Source of the DNA: Candidatus Poribacteria bacterium | GTDB taxonomy: Bacteria; Poribacteria; WGA-4E; WGA-3G | DNA: 64,000 nucleotides | Assembly: GCA_965197475.1 (NCBI GenBank) | Contig: CBDANF010000003.1 | Coordinates: 3,168,001-3,232,000, forward strand | Direction: 5' to 3' | In this document: one piece after another, positions 36,662-42,075 of the stretch | Layout of the letters: the number at the start of each line of letters is the position of its first letter | Numbering within the stretch: position 1 is the first letter of the stretch | Notes under the pieces: model-generated | The model's database searches: none | Seen by the model: only the letters and a program-made list of their open reading frames with translations | Told to the model about the DNA's origin: nothing | Made by a program: the position numbers and the translations under genes

Positions 36662-39241
36662 GTGAAAAAAAGTTTGTTTTTTATATTTTTGACACTACTT
36701 TGTGTTTCAACGTTCTATCAACCCAACGTTTTCGCTCAAGATTCGCCGCAATGGCATCTGCCTGAAGGTGCTACAGCGCGTCTCGGCAAAGGCTGGCTAT
36801 ATGAAATTCAGTATTCGCCGGATGGCACACGACTTGCAGCTGCAGGCTGCCTCGGTATTTGGATTTATGACACCGCAACCGATGAAGAAATTACACTATT
36901 GACTGGATATGGATATGCCATTTCTGCACTTTCATATTCCCCTGATGGGAGCATTCTTGCAGGGGGCAGTGCGGATGGGGTCATCCGTTTATGGGATCCT
37001 GTAACAGGTGAAATCCTACAGACACTCGATCGACATTGGGCAAGTATCCGTAGCCTCGTTTTCAGTCCTGATGGGAAAACGCTCGCCAGTGGTAGTAGAG
37101 ACAGAACTATTCGACTGTGGAATCTTGAAACAGGCGAACTGCTACACACCCTAAGAGGACATACAGATGGTATCAACAGTGTTGCTTTCAGTGCTGACGG
37201 AAGCACGATTATCAGTGGTAGTCGAGATGATACGATCAGAATATGGGATGTTGCCACAGGAGAAGAGCTGCAAACACTTAAAGAACATCGAGATAATGTT
37301 GACAGTGTTGTGGTCAGTCCCGATGGTAAAACGCTCGCAAGCGGAGATTTGAACGCGCTTATTCATCTATGGGATACGACAACATGGACGATCAAGGACA
37401 CCCTTATCGGACATACCTCACATATCTATGACATGAAATTTAGTCCCGATGGCAGTATTCTGGCGAGTGCGGGTGAAGATGACACCGTCCGATTGTGGGA
37501 TGCAGCCACAGGCAATCACTTAAACACACTTACCGATCATACCGCTGATGTCTACGGACTTGCTTTCACGCCGGATGGCACCGTGCTCACAAGTGGTGCA
37601 TGGGATGCGTCAATACGTTCATGGGACCCTGTTACAGGTGAACATCTGGAGACTATCACTGGACATACTGATGCTGTTGTGAGCGTCACCTTCAGTGCTG
37701 ATGGTACCATCCTTGCGACTCGGAGTTGGGACAAAACTATCCGCCTCTGGGATGCGGATACGGGTCAACTTCGGCATACCCTCATCGGTCACCAAGATGA
37801 TGTTGACATTGTTGTGTTCAGTCCTGATGGCAGAACACTCGCAAGTGGTAGCCAAGACAACACCGTCCGATTGTGGGACGCACTTACAGGCGAACACATA
37901 AAGACACTCAGAGGACATTATTCTTATCTGATTAGTCTTGCGTTCAGTCCGGATGGTAGCATCTTGGCGAGTGGTAGTGAGGACGACAGCATCCGTTTGT
38001 GGAATGTTGCCACAGGTCGTTACATGGGCGGGTTGTGGGAGCATGAAGCAGGTGTTGAGACACTTGCGTTCAGTCCGGATGGCACTATGCTTGCCAGTGG
38101 TAGTCGTGACGATAAGATTATCTTATGGGACATGGAAACACGCGATGTTATACACACTATCAGCGAACATGAGGATGATGTTTGGGCAGTTGCATTCAGT
38201 CCGGATGGCACCATGCTTGCCAGTGGTGGTGGTGACAAGGTCTCCTTATGGGATGTTCAAACAGCGGATCTTCTTCAGACATTCCGCAGACCGATTGATC
38301 GCGAAATTCCAGTAGGCGCGCCGGAAGAATTGACTGGAGATGTACCCACAGATCTTCCTGCGAATGCTACAAGTATTGTTTTTAGTCCAGATGGTAAAGT
38401 ACTCGTTAGTGGCAGTTACGACGCAACTATCCGCTTGTGGGACATTGCAACTGGAGAGCAGCTTCATACACTTGAAGGTCACACATATTCTATCACTAGT
38501 GTGGCAGTAAGTCCGAATGGAAGCATAATTGCAAGCGGCAGTTTCGATGGAACAGTCCTTTTGTGGGCATTCCCACTCCCGATGAGTTTAAAGCAAGTTC
38601 TCACGGTATTCGCAGATGTGAACAACGACGGTGTACTGAATATATTGGATGTAGTGCTGGTTGCGTCAAGTTTCGGAGAAACTGGGGCCAGTCCCGCAGA
38701 CCTCAACGGTGATGGTATTGTCAATATTTCGGATCTCTATTTGCTTGTGAACGCATTGAGAAATATTGAATCTGCGCCTTCTGTGCAATCGCTTTCAAGA
38801 GAGCAACTTACTGCAGCGCAGGTGCAGGAGTGGTTAACGCTTGCTAAGCAAGTACCGTCACAAATCATCCATACCTCAGAGTCAAATCGACTTTCTTATG
38901 AACGAGGAATTCAGGTGTTGGAACAAATTTTGCAAACATTGGCTCCGCAAGAGACAGCACTGCTTGCTAACTATCCAAATCCGTTCAATCCTGAAACATG
39001 GATACCGTATCAGTTGGCAGCACCTGCCGATGTTAGCATCTCTATCTATGCTGCAGATGGTAGGTTAGTTCGGACGCTTGCATTAGGACATTTATCCGCT
39101 GGCACCTATCAAAGTCGCAGTCGTGCAGCGTATTGGGATGGCAAAAACGCTTTAGGTGAATCTGTTGTGAGTGGCGTGTATTTCTATACGCTTACCACAG
39201 GTGATTTCACTGCAACACGAAAGATGTTGATTCTGAAATAG
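36662..39241 (+). CDS. Secreted WD40-repeat protein with dockerin-like EF-hands and FlgD-Ig/T9SS-like C-terminal domain
   Basis: ~13 GH...FSPDG..LASGS.D.TIRLWD repeats; DVNNDGVLNILD/DLNGDGIVNISD; LLANYPNPFNPETWIPY...AAYWDGKN..GE.V.SGVYFY...TRKMLILK. Confidence 0.92.
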   Translation: MKKSLFFIFLTLLCVSTFYQPNVFAQDSPQWHLPEGATARLGKGWLYEIQYSPDGTRLAAAGCLGIWIYDTATDEEITLLTGYGYAISALSYSPDGSILAGGSADGVIRLWDPVTGEILQTLDRHWASIRSLVFSPDGKTLASGSRDRTIRLWNLETGELLHTLRGHTDGINSVAFSADGSTIISGSRDDTIRIWDVATGEELQTLKEHRDNVDSVVVSPDGKTLASGDLNALIHLWDTTTWTIKDTLIGHTSHIYDMKFSPDGSILASAGEDDTVRLWDAATGNHLNTLTDHTADVYGLAFTPDGTVLTSGAWDASIRSWDPVTGEHLETITGHTDAVVSVTFSADGTILATRSWDKTIRLWDADTGQLRHTLIGHQDDVDIVVFSPDGRTLASGSQDNTVRLWDALTGEHIKTLRGHYSYLISLAFSPDGSILASGSEDDSIRLWNVATGRYMGGLWEHEAGVETLAFSPDGTMLASGSRDDKIILWDMETRDVIHTISEHEDDVWAVAFSPDGTMLASGGGDKVSLWDVQTADLLQTFRRPIDREIPVGAPEELTGDVPTDLPANATSIVFSPDGKVLVSGSYDATIRLWDIATGEQLHTLEGHTYSITSVAVSPNGSIIASGSFDGTVLLWAFPLPMSLKQVLTVFADVNNDGVLNILDVVLVASSFGETGASPADLNGDGIVNISDLYLLVNALRNIESAPSVQSLSREQLTAAQVQEWLTLAKQVPSQIIHTSESNRLSYERGIQVLEQILQTLAPQETALLANYPNPFNPETWIPYQLAAPADVSISIYAADGRLVRTLALGHLSAGTYQSRSRAAYWDGKNALGESVVSGVYFYTLTTGDFTATRKMLILK

Positions 39242-39367
39242 TATCAAATGACCATAGGATAGCTGGAAGGCTGATGTTTATTGGCTTCCCAGCGATCGTT
39301 GATGAGTGGGTTGCGTTGGGATCGCGAGCATCCTCTTTGAGAAATGATGCGTTTAGCGATAAACGTG
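39241..39367 (-). ncRNA. Candidate structured non-coding RNA at the downstream end of the DUF1670 element
   Basis: Directly downstream of a near-consensus promoter; four consecutive stems: CGTTTA/TAAACG, GCATC..CTC/GAG.GATGC, GCGATC/GATCGC (22-nt loop), GGAAG/CTTCC (15-nt loop). Confidence 0.4.
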
Positions 39368-39372
39368 TCTAA

Positions 39373-39401
39373 AGTATAGCAAAACCAGTAGCGGTTGTCA
39401 A
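39373..39401 (-). promoter_or_regulatory. Near-consensus sigma70 promoter inside the DUF1670 element, facing the terminal repeat
   Basis: Minus strand TTGACA (39401-39396) - 17 bp - TATACT (39378-39373). Confidence 0.7.
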
Positions 39402-39468
39402 CCATATTTTCAAGGCACCTGCCCCGGTTTTGCGAAGTAAAGTTCGTCGGGAACATAGGATTAGGGTC

Positions 39469-40353
39469 TCATTGGGCTTCTCCTTGGTGAGTGGCTTCAT
39501 CGTTTGAGTCTGAATTGGCAAGGTCTGCATCTATGGCTTGGAGTTGGTGCTGCGGTATGAGGTCGAGATATTGAGAGATGACGCGTTTAGAAAGTCGTGT
39601 AATCTGTGAGATTTTATCAATATCTGCGGTTGCTTTCCGAACGACTTTGACGCTCTCATAATCGCGAATGTATCGGTCAACTGCCTCCTTAGAGTGTTTG
39701 GTCTTTGCGGCAATCCTGGGGGTGAGATGTCCTTGAAGATAGAGGGTTATGATCTCTTTCTTATGGGTAATAGCCCCCGATAAGTCATGGATATTGCCAC
39801 GGGTGGGCAAGAGTTCTCCAGTGGTTTTTTGCCATTCATTAACATAATCACAGACAACGGCATCGCAGACATTGAGCAAAACTGCCAAGTCGAGTTGTGT
39901 CAATAATGCCCCTTGGTCATAAGCTTGATGACACCAGCGGACCAAGCGATTGATCCGCAATTGCCGGGAGGTGAAACCGTTGCGAAAGGATTCAATATCC
40001 TCTGCGGCGAGGTAAGTCAGGATGACGGGTTTCATGCGGGTTTTGACGATGGACTTTCCTCTTTCTGGATGCTCTTCAATAGGGACGGCCATCCAAACGA
40101 GTTGTCCATAACTCAAGAAACGCTCATCCGGGAGTTGATCGCCGGTGGCGAGTTTCTCCAAAGGAAGGGTAATCACGAAATAGTCTTCAACGGTCTTAAG
40201 AATATCATCAACAATGGCGGTGGCAGTGACTTCGCCTTTGTCATAACCATAGTCATTGAGAAAGCGGTGAATGAGCAACTGTCGTAGGGACTTATCGTTG
40301 ATGCGTCTGAATTTCTTCTCGTTGATTTGCGTGCGGGTTAGAGGTTTGCTCAT
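39469..40353 (-). CDS. DUF1670-like protein (paralog B)
   Basis: QAYDQGALLTQLDLAVLL..., LPTRGNIHDL...THKKEIITLYLQG..., HSKEAVDRYIRDY; ATGA-coupled to the upstream paralog. Confidence 0.8.
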   Translation of the reverse strand: MSKPLTRTQINEKKFRRINDKSLRQLLIHRFLNDYGYDKGEVTATAIVDDILKTVEDYFVITLPLEKLATGDQLPDERFLSYGQLVWMAVPIEEHPERGKSIVKTRMKPVILTYLAAEDIESFRNGFTSRQLRINRLVRWCHQAYDQGALLTQLDLAVLLNVCDAVVCDYVNEWQKTTGELLPTRGNIHDLSGAITHKKEIITLYLQGHLTPRIAAKTKHSKEAVDRYIRDYESVKVVRKATADIDKISQITRLSKRVISQYLDLIPQHQLQAIDADLANSDSNDEATHQGEAQ

Positions 40354-41162
40354 GAGAGGTCCCCCTTTTTTGTGTCCTCAGGTTCTGGGTGAAGGAGTTG
40401 GGTCATGCGATCTGTGTGTTGGTATTCCTCATAGAGTGAGAGATACTCGCGGATCAACCGGTCAGATAGATGGGTGATCAGGCGTATCTGTGCGTTAGGA
40501 AAGCCTTGATGATGGAGCGTAGCGACTTGTGTAAAGTCTTTCAAGTAGCGGTAGACAGCTCGTTCGCTGTGGTTCGTCTTTTTCTCGATTTCGGTGAAGG
40601 TATAGGCTTTGAAATATAACTCCAGGACCTGGGTTTTATGAGAAGTGCCGGGGCCCATGTCGTGTTTCGTCCCGCGCGTCATAACGAAATACCCATCCTG
40701 CTTCAAGTGTCGAATGTCGCGTTTGACTGTAGCAGGACTGGTGGTTAATAATACAGCTAAATCCTCGTAGCTCAGTAAGGCATCTTGGTCATAAGCTTCT
40801 TGGGTCAATCGGAGGATCCGATGCCGTCTGAGTCCTGCGAGACCATAATTCGCTAAGACTTCAAGATCGGCGTTTGTGTCATTGAGAGTTAGCCGACAGG
40901 AAACTTTTTTCGCTAAAGCGATATGTTTACCTGCGGGTTCCTCTGCGGCGACTGCCTCGTAGCAGATTTGCCCTGATGTCAGGTGCACATCGGCGTGTTG
41001 TTCAAAGTAGGTGGAAATCTGTTTATAGTAGGCTTCAGCAACGAGAGGCATTAGATTAAAGTCTGCTGAAATCTTCTGAATAATCGCGGCTCTGGCATTC
41101 TTGGATTCGAGCCGAGTGATACCGTAAGCGGTATCCTTCTTGCGGTTCATATTGACCTCCAT
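40350..41162 (-). CDS. DUF1670-like protein (paralog A); probable start ATG 41150
   Basis: EAYDQDALLSYEDLAVLL.TS..TV.RDI, TRG..HDMGPGTSHK, HSERAVYRYLKDF; GGAGG RBS precedes 41150. Confidence 0.8.
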   Translation of the reverse strand: MEVNMNRKKDTAYGITRLESKNARAAIIQKISADFNLMPLVAEAYYKQISTYFEQHADVHLTSGQICYEAVAAEEPAGKHIALAKKVSCRLTLNDTNADLEVLANYGLAGLRRHRILRLTQEAYDQDALLSYEDLAVLLTTSPATVKRDIRHLKQDGYFVMTRGTKHDMGPGTSHKTQVLELYFKAYTFTEIEKKTNHSERAVYRYLKDFTQVATLHHQGFPNAQIRLITHLSDRLIREYLSLYEEYQHTDRMTQLLHPEPEDTKKGDLS

Positions 41163-41417
41163 GAATAGATTATCGGGGATCCGAGGACATCTACTCGTTA
41201 GTTTAACGAATACTAATAGTATAACTCATGGGGTCATTTGATACAAACTATAAGTAGCGGTCAGGGGTCAGTTTAGCACCGTTTTGCTAAACCATACACA
41301 AAATTGACAGTTATGGGTAGAGCGATAGCGAGACACGACATAGAGGCATTCGGCTATCGGCTGTCGGCCATCAGTCTTGTAGGTCGGGTAGAGTATGCGA
41401 AACCCATAGGCATCAAT

Positions 41418-42075
41418 TTAGTGATTTTTTCGCGATATTTGATCTCCTTGATGCGTTTTTGGGTCTCCTGTTCGGAAAGTTTTTGAGCCACCAAGCGCGC
41501 TTGGATACGCTTTGTTTTCCCAACAGCGACTTGTATTTCGCAAGTGTGTGGTTTGGGTCTTGAGCCATTTTAGTAAACAAAATGGTGTTTCTGCGTCGTC
41601 AAAGAGAGAACAATCAACTTTCAACTGTGTTATCCAAAAGACACCTGCCTCGGAAAGTTTTCCGAGGGTGTCAAGTGAAAAATAATCGCGATCTGCCAGA
41701 CGTAAACGCCCCGGTGTCCGCATCGGCATCTGTTTTCAGCCGTGCAATCCTGTGTGGTACCATCAGTGAATTGAAAGTGTTCAAAAGTGCCAGTGGCAAC
41801 ATCAAAGTGGTTTTCAAGGTCGATGCAGCTTCGGGCGTGAAACGCTGTTCAATCGCCTGTCGTATGATAGGTGTGCCGAGAACACCAGCGGTTTGGGCAA
41901 GTTCGGTATAGGTTGCATCTGGACTTGCTAACCAAGTGAAAACAAGTGTCTCAACAAACCGACTGCCTGTGAGTTTACGACTTCTTTCAACAAAACCATG
42001 TTGATGTGCGGTTTCATCGGCAGTCGTTGTTAGAATCTGTTGCATTTTATTGGGAACCTGTGATAATGTATACAT
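41418..42075 (-). pseudogene. IS4-family transposase remnant
   Basis: A..A...GFVERSRKLTG..F..TLVF..L, QAIEQRF and LADRDYF...GVFWITQLK motifs; deleted and frameshifted. Confidence 0.78.

Follow-up and report, generated by a model that had tools for sequence, protein, structure and literature searches.

The feature described here, at the right end of an insertion sequence in a 64,000-nucleotide window of a Candidatus Poribacteria genome (the window being the whole stretch of DNA that was analysed), is probably the outward promoter, termed P_out, of a two-gene DUF1670 insertion sequence, together with a non-coding leader. The initial annotation had proposed a dedicated strong promoter leading out of the element into flanking DNA, and this is supported by the promoter scan, by conservation and by the lack of a terminator. 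It had also proposed an RNA component like the IS110 bridge RNA or the TnpB omega-RNA, for which neither a conserved structure nor a target match beyond chance was found. In the terms of that annotation, a lack of structural covariation among homologous elements would leave a simple outward-facing insertion-sequence promoter, and since no convincing covariation was found the feature is read here as such a promoter, maintained by selection. Transcription from P_out would start on the minus strand at ~39367, and the transcript would comprise ~115 nt of non-coding leader, the right inverted repeat and then sequence antisense to the last codons of the type IX secretion system (T9SS) sorting-domain gene that holds the element. 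From the sequence comparisons below we infer that selection keeps transcription across the right end.

The element, its proteins and its insertion site

Element ends were set by alignment of 19 copies with their flanks and by comparison with empty paralogous sites and orthologous empty sites (coordinates in Table 1). The element end had previously been placed at a terminal inverted repeat, which is present, but the true end lies 3 nt farther out, at 39238, and is flanked by a 2-bp duplication. Eighteen full-length copies with 91–100% identity are present in this Poribacteria genome, both ends being flanked by TT in 18/18, and orthologous empty sites read ...AA/R TAR. The element is multicopy and carries two adjacent PF07900 genes, which overlap by 4 nt, between its inverted repeats. 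The right terminal repeat has a column conservation of 0.94, and 62 of 80 metagenome loci have retained the terminal repeat, with protein identity as low as ~55%.

Table 1. Positions in the window of the insertion sequence, its parts and the interrupted host gene.
Feature	Position	Strand	Details
Host gene, WD40-repeat protein with T9SS type A C-terminal sorting domain	36662..39241	+	WD40 family matches
Target-site duplication, right copy	39236..39237	AA on +, TT on -	Bases 1 and 2 of the final host Lys codon
Complete DUF1670 insertion sequence	39238..41251	-	2,014 bp, termini 5'-ATAG...CTAT-3'
Right terminal inverted repeat	39238..39253	-	GGTCATTTGATAC plus TAT; 13-bp perfect inverted repeat
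Non-coding leader	39254..39367	-	Predicted start (~39367) to right inverted repeat
Extended hairpin 4	39258..39297	-	GATCGCTGGGAAG / loop CCAATAAACATCAG / CCTTCCAGCTATC; 77.8% of cells paired, 13 pairs, mostly invariant
Hairpin 1 / palindrome	39350..39365	-	CGTTTA-TCGC-TAAACG, just past predicted start
Outward promoter P_out (predicted)	39373..39401	-	-35 TTGACA 39401-39396; 17-nt spacer; TG 39381-39380; -10 TATACT 39378-39373
DUF1670 gene B	39469..40353	-	294 aa; PF07900 E = 1.2e-61
DUF1670 gene A	40350..41162	-	270 aa; PF07900 E = 4e-62; HTH_11 E = 1e-6
Left end	41218..41251	-	ATAGTTT + inverted repeat GTATCAAATGACC; read from sequence
Candidate weak inward promoter	TTGTAT 41246-41241, 17 nt, TATACT 41223-41218	-	Under scan-tool threshold
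Target-site duplication, left copy	41252..41253		Followed by G+TAG, displaced from the original gene end AAG TAG

Of the 18 full copies here, 16 had inserted within the final codon of a T9SS sorting-domain gene and in a single orientation, as was also seen at 53/63 loci from genomes, and the orientation was always convergent with the host gene. The right terminal repeat contributes A+TAG on the plus strand, by which the host Lys codon is completed and followed by a stop, such that the last codon and stop of the host gene are rebuilt by the element. Target choice was base-exact in the copies with flanks, the empty orthologous sites and the genome loci. Besides sorting-domain gene ends there are two alternative target classes, one of them a palindromic repeat, and a subfamily of the element diverged by ~10% in DNA has three different targets. 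About 1/3 of the detectable sites in this sponge symbiont are occupied. The C-terminus of the host protein (last 99 aa) matched TIGR04183 at 40.1 bits (cut-off 23), and the C-terminal region is also matched by PF18962 and FlgD_ig. Inspection by eye of orthologous uninterrupted genes located a terminator-like hairpin 15–25 nt past the stop, which is lost on insertion.

Family searches assigned proteins A and B to DUF1670 and HTH families only, and identified no IS110-type recombinase and no TnpB/IscB. The AF2 model of gene B (pLDDT 87.8) is helical and HTH-rich; a PDB fold search with this model gave no match with E < 0.4, and the sole match in a PDB sequence search was HTH-like (E = 2e-4). Across the family, PDB sequence and fold searches, no catalytic fold or DNA-cutting enzyme was recognisable in either DUF1670 protein, and judged by sequence and model the two look like HTH proteins that bind double-stranded DNA. 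Full-text literature searches for DUF1670 and PF07900, which covered articles as distinct from supplementary files, returned no paper on the element family, and tblastn against a plasmid collection returned no relative of DUF1670-B.

Conservation of the predicted outward promoter

Sites were scored against the sigma-70 consensus, the use of which by Poribacteria is an assumption. The TTGACA-17-TATACT sequence reported earlier on the minus strand was recovered by the promoter scan with 11/12 matches and a TG extended -10. Of the 4 promoter-like sites in 38900–41600 it scores best, though a count of 4 is by itself unremarkable (shuffle mean 3.5). The annotation had seen no terminator before the element end, and a terminator scan likewise detected no intrinsic terminator on the minus strand in 38900–41600. 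Its observation that no convincing ORF follows the promoter also held: the ORFs over the tail (70 aa, 39456-39244; 53 aa, 39530-39369) all begin upstream of P_out, and the region is absent in short-tail relatives. P_out is situated 3' of gene B, with ~1.8 kb between it and the gene A start, and its promoter elements lie inside the element end and are directed outward, as is characteristic of outward promoters of insertion sequences.

Over 50 distinct elements, the -35 had a column conservation of 0.93 and the extended -10 one of 0.94; the spacer reached 0.69, the segment between the stop codon of gene B and the -35 likewise 0.69, and third codon positions 0.66–0.68. Because the hexamers so exceed the spacer and third codon positions, they are considered to be under purifying selection, and the comparison of elements shows a dedicated, predicted strong outward promoter that is held by purifying selection, as the spacer and most of the leader are not. 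Promoter scores of >=10 were obtained for 58/103 distinct tails on the outward strand versus 3/103 on the inward strand. In a sister clade (73–79% identity), 10/10 distinct tails have TTGACA-16/18-TAnnnT at 37–50 nt from the end, and the transcribed tail is there of unrelated sequence and only ~30–45 nt long. The promoter is also kept in the subfamily sited in the palindromic repeat, outside gene ends. Among elements with protein identity <=64%, only 2 distinct tails attain a score of 10, and P_out is thus not visibly universal in the family. The low-scoring distant elements belong to AT-rich hosts, for which other promoter types are possible.

The conserved blocks could alternatively be nothing but DNA-level end structure, that is, sites for the two HTH proteins to which the promoter likeness is incidental. 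One palindrome lies at the predicted start (hairpin 1) and another surrounds the -35 (GGTTGACAACC), the sister-clade -10 is bracketed by inverted repeats, and the transcribed strand folds no better than its complement, all of which would suit such sites. What is conserved, however, is exactly the hexamers and the TG, at the right spacing and with a neutral spacer, and the same consensus appears in a clade whose tail is otherwise unrelated. With this pattern the reading as transposase sites is hard to sustain and is considered highly improbable. The promoter and DNA-binding readings can coexist, as an operator-controlled promoter.

The leader and the proposed RNA component

Four consecutive stems had been described in the tail and can be drawn in this copy, but hairpin 3 is unconserved and homologues have no consensus fold. 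In the predicted fold of this copy (MFE -27.8 kcal/mol, z -2.38; equalled by 2/200 shuffles), GATCGC is paired to the 3' side of hairpin 4 instead of forming the hairpin 3 first drawn, which was paired in only 51.6% of cells over 43 homologous tails. The RNAalifold consensus contained 0 pairs for the 43 tails, 3 trivial pairs for 29 long tails and 14 invariant pairs for short tails. The covariation check that had been suggested for homologous tails accordingly yielded no consensus structure and no convincing covariation. The opposite strand folded better in 37/43 tails, G-U versus A-C cells numbered 86 versus 69 in a strand test, an indecisive difference, and Rfam 15 gave no match at E <= 1. 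A conserved four-hairpin ncRNA is not supported, in view of the RNAalifold result, the failure of hairpin 3, the opposite-strand folding, the chance-level match of loop 4 to the flank, the near-identical tails at unrelated targets and the very short tails of some relatives. A small tail protein, considered for a 17-codon ORF with its ATG in hairpin 2, was rejected, the ORF being unconserved and its region missing in short tails.

Conservation of the leader in the 50 distinct elements ranged from 0.61 to 0.84, the parts above the neutral baseline being hairpin 2 (0.84), loop 4 (0.81) and the 3' arm of hairpin 4 (0.84). In hairpin 1, 78.7% of cells are paired and 4/6 pairs are altered on both sides; only 22/43 distinct start-proximal 30-mers had z < -1.5, with equally good folding of the opposite strand. 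Hairpin 4 is present in 14 short tails, with no covariation, and its opposite strand is more stable in 31/43. On the strength of the conserved hairpin 2, loop 4 and hairpin 4 arm, and of the two-sided changes in hairpin 1, some constraint appears to be acting on the leader or on the DNA. Deletions have removed hairpin 2 and half of hairpin 3 from the short-tail elements (n = 14), which are nevertheless found in the same targets. In some relatives the tail measures just 16–51 nt, which leaves hardly any space, if any, for a promoter downstream of gene B.

Part of the element is contained in 22 sequencing runs. Contigs from 4 RNA-library runs of 3 studies, compared over 38900–41500, span the tail and continue into gene B; they carry neither strand nor start nor end and may derive from DNA. 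Mean word depth of the tail bin in the RNA-library contigs was 1.5–3.7x that of the next bin, such depth being unable to rank gene parts. No right-end/left-end joint is listed among the 4 RNA-library runs.

A component like the bridge RNA, with tail loops that pair with target and donor DNA and so programme insertion, would be favoured by the resemblance of loop 4 (AATAAACATC), which is among the better conserved parts of the leader, to the adjacent flank (AATCAACATC). This 9/10 match is at chance level when tested on a profile of 69 target flanks, being equalled by 36/300 dinucleotide shuffles, and a search of both strands in 10 elements gave no tail-target match that fewer than 15/200 shuffles equalled. 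Also in favour, tails of the type of loci L065 and L078 contain a stretch like the right repeat (GCTCATTTGATGA). The expectation that loops would track the insertion site failed for L065 and L081, whose 128-nt tails are near-identical (~6 differing positions, counted from the alignment) and whose targets are unrelated, L065 sitting in a sorting-domain gene end and L081 in the palindromic repeat. With the short-tail elements still reaching the same targets, and with neither an IS110-type recombinase nor an Rfam match, the bridge-RNA-like reading is already largely refuted and is regarded as barely credible.

The other RNA reading is that of a flank-reading guide (omega-RNA / reRNA-like), in which the right repeat would be the handle and the host flank the guide for the DUF1670 proteins, its purpose being homing to similar or paralogous gene ends or re-cutting of the emptied donor site. 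This is very unlikely, in mechanism and in purpose. Its appeal lies in the placement of the promoter 37–133 nt inside the right end, outward and with no terminator, in two clades; in targeting exact to one base by proteins with no recognisable catalytic fold; and in the three targets of the ~10% diverged subfamily. Apart from the repeat, however, no scaffold is conserved, the relatives with 16–51 nt tails leave scant room for a promoter, and a sigma-70-type P_out is absent from view in more distant clades. A further point in its favour is that the sequence TTCAGAAT begins the flank at 5/18 occupied sites versus 0/33 empty sorting-domain ends in this genome, an excess that comes from a small sample of related paralogues. 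Paralogous targets have several differences among their first 20 flank bases, which suit a guide poorly, and the proteins resemble those that bind double-stranded DNA. If true, a flank guide would explain both the base-exact targeting and the fast target switching in a 90%-identical subfamily, and would constitute an RNA-guided mobile system unrelated to TnpB, IscB or IS110.

Possible uses of the promoter and comparison with known systems

For the outward promoter itself, the use ranked most likely, tentatively when taken on its own, is conditional expression via joined ends. In an integrated copy P_out would fire outward, harmlessly. An excised circle or head-to-tail tandem would bring a right end up against a left end, and P_out would then drive genes A and B; the promoter that these genes have in the left repeat is predicted to be weak. 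The left-end -35 (TTGTAT) lies inside the repeat, and the -10 in relatives is TAYACT or TAAACT. The right junction CTAT/TT/C re-creates the target TAY/TT/C, and sequence like the right repeat adjoins the left end with a 2-bp spacer at five loci (L070, L110, L143, L150 and L158). The junctions found hold only the terminal ~16–20 nt of a right end. Among 159 genomes of the order, a right-end/NN/left-end junction was found in 1, formed by a solo right repeat, and neither a circle nor a full tandem was found. The use ranked second, which is doubtful, is head-on transcription that would protect the DUF1670 genes and the right end against read-through of the host gene, whose own terminator now lies 2 kb farther off as a result of the insertion. 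Conditional expression and shielding cannot be told apart with the present data.

It is unlikely that the read-out RNA instead acts as an antisense regulator of the host gene, base-pairing to the T9SS cargo mRNA at its 3' end and altering the stability of this mRNA, whether in cis on the host mRNA or in trans on paralogous mRNAs, and whether as a side effect or as a host-directed function. At 16/18 full copies the predicted transcript is perfectly antisense to the last host codons, and the orientation is always convergent. A multicopy element is, however, selected for its own spread and not for 16 host genes, and the promoter is equally retained in the palindromic-repeat subfamily.

Copy-out/paste-in transposition with junction promoters, the -35 and -10 being split between the ends, is known from IS911, IS2, IS30, IS21 and many members of the IS110 family. 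A junction promoter is also reported for ISPpu10 (bioRxiv 10.1101/2025.01.17.633520). P_out would resemble these systems in having outward elements in the right end, a transposase driven only upon joining of the left end and a weak native inward promoter, and differs in that the DUF1670 element has a complete promoter at 125–130 nt inside the end (37–50 nt in the sister clade). That preprint also describes the small RNA ssr9 of ISPpu9 (IS110 family), which is reported to be dispensable for transposition and is, like the leader, a non-coding unit 3' of the transposase gene in a site-specific insertion sequence; ssr9 differs in being a separable module also found alone and in its association with a different enzyme family (bioRxiv 10.1101/2025.01.17.633520). 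The DUF1670 tail in this genome occurs only within element copies or their deletion derivatives.

IS10 has a strong outward promoter, pOUT, just within its end; its product, RNA-OUT, represses the transposase mRNA, with whose 5' end it overlaps. P_out shares with it the outward position near the end of the insertion sequence and a predicted small non-coding transcript beginning with a stem-loop. In contrast to pOUT, P_out occupies the 3' end of its operon, and its transcript would overlap the host gene and not the element genes, leaving the 5' end of the transposase mRNA uncovered. The IS110 bridge RNA and the TnpB/IscB omega-RNA are encoded at the element end, the omega-RNA running through the end into a flank-derived guide. 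Compared with the former, the DUF1670 element has no IS110 recombinase, no target-matching loops and no covarying structure or Rfam match; compared with the latter, it has no RuvC nuclease partner and no conserved scaffold. The direction of P_out and the lack of a terminator would fit read-out into the flank as for an omega-RNA; the RNA data over the tail are contigs, which carry no start, end or strand.

Outward promoters in the ends of insertion sequences are well known, and P_out is ordinary in kind; the interest lies in the family that carries it, which has no recognisable DNA-cutting enzyme, enters the last codon of genes for type IX-secreted proteins and rebuilds that codon and the stop. 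In this symbiont, 16 secreted-protein host genes each face a strong convergent predicted promoter. P_out is the first directly testable regulatory part of the DUF1670 insertion-sequence family, and offers a handle on expression of the element, on any joined-ends form and on any RNA role.

Outward promoter in the right end of the element

In its right end the element, a two-gene DUF1670 insertion sequence on the minus strand, carries a predicted near-consensus promoter under selection that reads outward (P_out). The initial annotation had described TTGACA-17-TATACT on this strand, and the site was present as described, with a 17-nt spacer ending in TGC; it scored 11/12 with an extended -10, the top of four promoter-like sites found by promoter scan of 38900-41600. 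Also in agreement with that annotation, no minus-strand terminator was found by scanning the same interval, and no ORF follows the promoter, as all ORFs overlapping the tail (the segment between the gene B stop and the element end) begin upstream of P_out. Column conservation was computed on an alignment of 50 distinct full elements (see table); conserved hexamers with a baseline-level spacer are the pattern expected of a working promoter.

By a simple scoring rule, a score of at least 10 was reached on the outward strand in 58 of 103 distinct tails versus 3/103 on the inward strand. The 58 include all Poribacteria-type tails and every one of the 10 distinct tails in a clade with 73-79% protein identity. 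There TTGACA-16/18-TAnnnT is placed just 37-50 nt inside the end, and the promoter-to-repeat sequence is unrelated to that of the window. In short-form tails (139-143 nt) the gene B stop abuts the -35. Where the identity of relatives is 64% or lower, just two tails score at least 10 and several are 16-51 nt long; since these tails are AT-rich (15-43% G+C), they may hold other promoter types. In sister-clade tails (L100, L102, L104, L106) the P_out -10 is bracketed or overlapped by an inverted repeat whose arms covary. As the 5' arm of this repeat precedes the transcription start, the P_out transcript cannot form it; its role might be that of an operator or of a hairpin at the 3' end of gene B mRNA. 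Sixteen RNA-library runs hold part of the element, and in four of these, from three studies, contigs span the tail and bridge to gene B, although they may include DNA and carry no start, end or strand information.

Positions and column conservation of features of the element and its relatives
Feature	Position	Strand	Conservation
Element, 5'-ATAG...CTAT-3', flanked by 2-bp duplication (TT, element strand)	39238-41251	minus	
Rebuilt host gene end, A and TAG supplied by element	39236-39241, 41252-41257		
Third codon positions			0.66-0.68
Gene B stop to -35			0.69
P_out -35 hexamer, TTGACA	39401-39396	minus	0.93
P_out spacer			0.69
P_out -10, TATACT (conservation of extended -10)	39378-39373	minus	0.94
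Leader from predicted P_out start, with part of right repeat (127 nt folded; conservation of leader)	39367 to 39241	minus	intermediate, 0.74-0.84 in places
Right inverted repeat			0.94
DUF1670-B gene (residues 144-228, putative catalytic centre)	39469-40353	minus	
Left end, two direct copies of ATGAGTTAnACT	41190-41231		
103-aa ORF, probable insertion sequence remnant	41418-41729	minus	
Miniature derivative	G000:C3:93986-94563		
Internally deleted copy	G000:C3:434718-436636		
Copies with identical left flanks	G000:C2:1162563, C3:847205		
Right-repeat word at left end	L070:3090-3135, L110:40-75, L143:1-25, L150:1530-1575, L158:715-755		

Carrier element and choice of target

The gene pair upstream of P_out (genes A and B) encodes paralogous DUF1670 proteins (PF07900, E about 1e-61; otherwise HTH matches only) and lies between the arms of a perfect 13-bp inverted repeat. 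In the genome of the window there are 18 full-length copies (91-100% identity), a copy with an internal deletion and a miniature derivative that joins about 298 nt of left end to about 285 nt of right end plus flank. Element ends were set by aligning all copies with their flanks and comparing them with empty paralogous sites and with orthologous uninterrupted genes of related genomes. Two copies share an identical 60-nt left flank, but their right flanks are unrelated: that of one copy is a sorting-domain end, that of the other the antisense of an HTH-type gene. Such a pattern points to recombination between copies or to a left flank that is itself repeated. In the left end and its relatives, the first ATGAGTTAnACT copy overlaps the candidate -10, and these copies are likely protein-binding sites; ACTCAT occurs in inverted orientation in the right tail. 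The 103-aa ORF adjoining the element matches DDE_Tnp_1 weakly (E = 0.0089) and is probably what is left of another insertion sequence downstream of the host gene.

The insertion point is within the final sense codon of the host gene, which encodes a WD40 protein. The C-terminal 99 residues of this protein score 40.1 bits (cut-off 23) for the T9SS type A sorting domain, TIGR04183. Before insertion the gene ended CTG AAG TAG; afterwards it reads CTG AA + A TAG, and the last residue and stop are kept. Orientation is always convergent across the following target counts. Of the 18 full copies, 16 are at sorting-domain gene ends, and so are the miniature derivative and the deleted copy; by nhmmer profile, 18 of 51 such ends are occupied (derivatives included) and 33 are empty. 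A flank beginning TTCAGAAT is found at 5/18 occupied versus 0/33 empty sites. Flanks of the sorting-domain kind also border 53/63 copies from other Poribacteria genomes and the majority of 53 metagenome relatives, with protein identity as low as about 55%. The junction dinucleotide varies across the wider family (TT, CG, CT, TG, TA), which fits last codons AAA, CGA, AGA and CAA or the stop codon itself. For one subfamily (L078-L081, L091, L095) the site is a palindromic repeat, GAAACCGAGTTTT|TT|CTTCAAAACTCGGTTTC, with insertion into its loop; this subfamily is about 90% identical to L065, which targets a sorting-domain gene. L084, also about 90% identical, occupies a third kind of site. Another recurring non-sorting-domain target (L100, L134, L170, L171) has right flanks that start TATTTACTGTT(A/C)GG and hold a CCGG-ended palindrome, with the peptide reading ...LPNSK.

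The AlphaFold model of DUF1670-B (the gene B protein) is confident (pLDDT 87.8) and predicts a mostly helical protein with several HTH units. Foldseek against the PDB gave nothing below E = 0.4, only repressor-like and paired-domain-like pieces, and no recombinase fold was found for it. No change is seen across 44 relatives at A144, H197, K198, H220 or Y228; R227 is invariant only among the eight closest sequences, and R139, P183, R185, G186, D190 and G192 are 90% or more conserved; this R/H/K/Y set could form a catalytic centre. The family comprises 1,017 representative clusters (E <= 0.001), with fused forms of two (about 520 aa) and three units (about 930-950 aa).

The tail as a candidate RNA

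The initial annotation had proposed that four consecutive hairpins in the leader form an RNA component of the DUF1670 system. The stems can be drawn in this copy, which folds at -27.8 kcal/mol (z -2.38; 2/200 shuffles fold as well); the conserved four-hairpin fold was rejected. The tail had no match in Rfam 15. RNAalifold predicted 0 pairs for 43 distinct tails, 3 trivial pairs for the 29 long tails and 14 invariant pairs (hairpins 1 and 4) for the 14 short tails, none with compensatory changes. When the annotated helices were counted, hairpin 1 was paired in 78.7% of cells, with both sides changed at 4/6 pairs, and hairpin 2 was conserved in long-form tails; short-form tails lack hairpin 2 and half of hairpin 3. 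Hairpin 3 failed at 51.6%, its 3' arm pairing better in an extended hairpin 4 of 13 bp (77.8%, nearly invariant). A fold with z < -1.5 was obtained for just 22 of the 43 distinct 30-mers next to the start. Over the whole tail the complementary strand is the more stable (-35.2 versus -29.1 kcal/mol), the transcript strand being favored in only 6/43 tails; G-U versus A-C counts are 86 to 69. Given the consensus-fold, helix-count and strand-stability tests, the structure signal is no better than in a palindrome-rich DNA end. The leader's intermediate conservation makes some constraint likely, which could stem from sites for proteins, from an operator placed at the start or from elements of the leader. 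A role of the tail purely as DNA-level sites is quite improbable, and might be an addition rather than an alternative.

A weak match of loop 4 to the adjacent flank had also been noted. When 69 distinct target flanks were used as a profile, its score was equalled by 36/300 dinucleotide shuffles. In ten elements of five types, with both strands considered, at least 15/200 shuffles did as well as the top tail-target match. Nor do loops co-vary with insertion site: L065 and L081, 90% identical over the element with tails differing at about six positions (counted on the alignment), lie in a sorting-domain gene end and a palindromic-repeat loop, respectively. Because of the shuffle results and this target difference, internal guides of the bridge-RNA type are ruled out as far as sequence allows, and a bridge-like RNA of the IS110 kind, which fails both fold and tail-target tests, is scarcely credible. 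The DUF1670 proteins have no recognisable catalytic fold, and an RNA-assisted mechanism is therefore a formal possibility. That, with the geometry, fits a guide RNA derived from the flank, but no scaffold is conserved, and relatives whose tails are very short seem to do without such a guide, which makes it improbable. Judged by these comparisons, the RNA reading of the tail is mostly refuted.

Possible uses of outward transcription

Selection probably acts on transcription across the right end and not on RNA fold. Within this general statement two uses are favored. One, conditional expression, is a plausible reading though somewhat short of an even chance: P_out would point away from the genes in an integrated copy and, once the right end is joined to the left, would read into genes A and B, whose own candidate promoter (TTGTAT-17-TATACT, -35 inside the left repeat) is weak. 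The target motif is re-created by the element's right junction, and at five loci a right-repeat remnant abuts the left end across a 2-bp spacer. These solo right-repeat-like words of about 16-20 nt, ending GATACTAT with unrelated DNA upstream, may be remnants of stacked insertions into this re-created target. In 159 genomes of the order only one such right-repeat/left-end junction was found, and no full tandems.

A second use within the general statement, shielding, is rather less likely. Uninterrupted orthologues have a terminator-like hairpin 15-25 nt after the stop, and each insertion separates the host gene from it; because the hairpin is displaced, host RNA polymerase would enter the right end antisense to the DUF1670 genes, and a strong head-on P_out would oppose this read-through. 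A host-directed antisense role for the outward transcript is unlikely, and might be an addition rather than an alternative.

P_out is of a known kind, the outward promoter of an insertion sequence. It is similar to the junction promoters of IS911, IS30, IS21 and IS110-type elements, which are split whereas P_out is complete, and to pOUT of IS10, except that P_out lies at the opposite end of the operon. Another non-coding unit placed behind a transposase gene is ssr9 of ISPpu9, reported as unneeded for transposition (bioRxiv 10.1101/2025.01.17.633520). For the family that carries P_out, full-text literature searches for DUF1670 or PF07900 found no paper. P_out gives experiments direct access to this enigmatic mobile element, which inserts with single-base precision.
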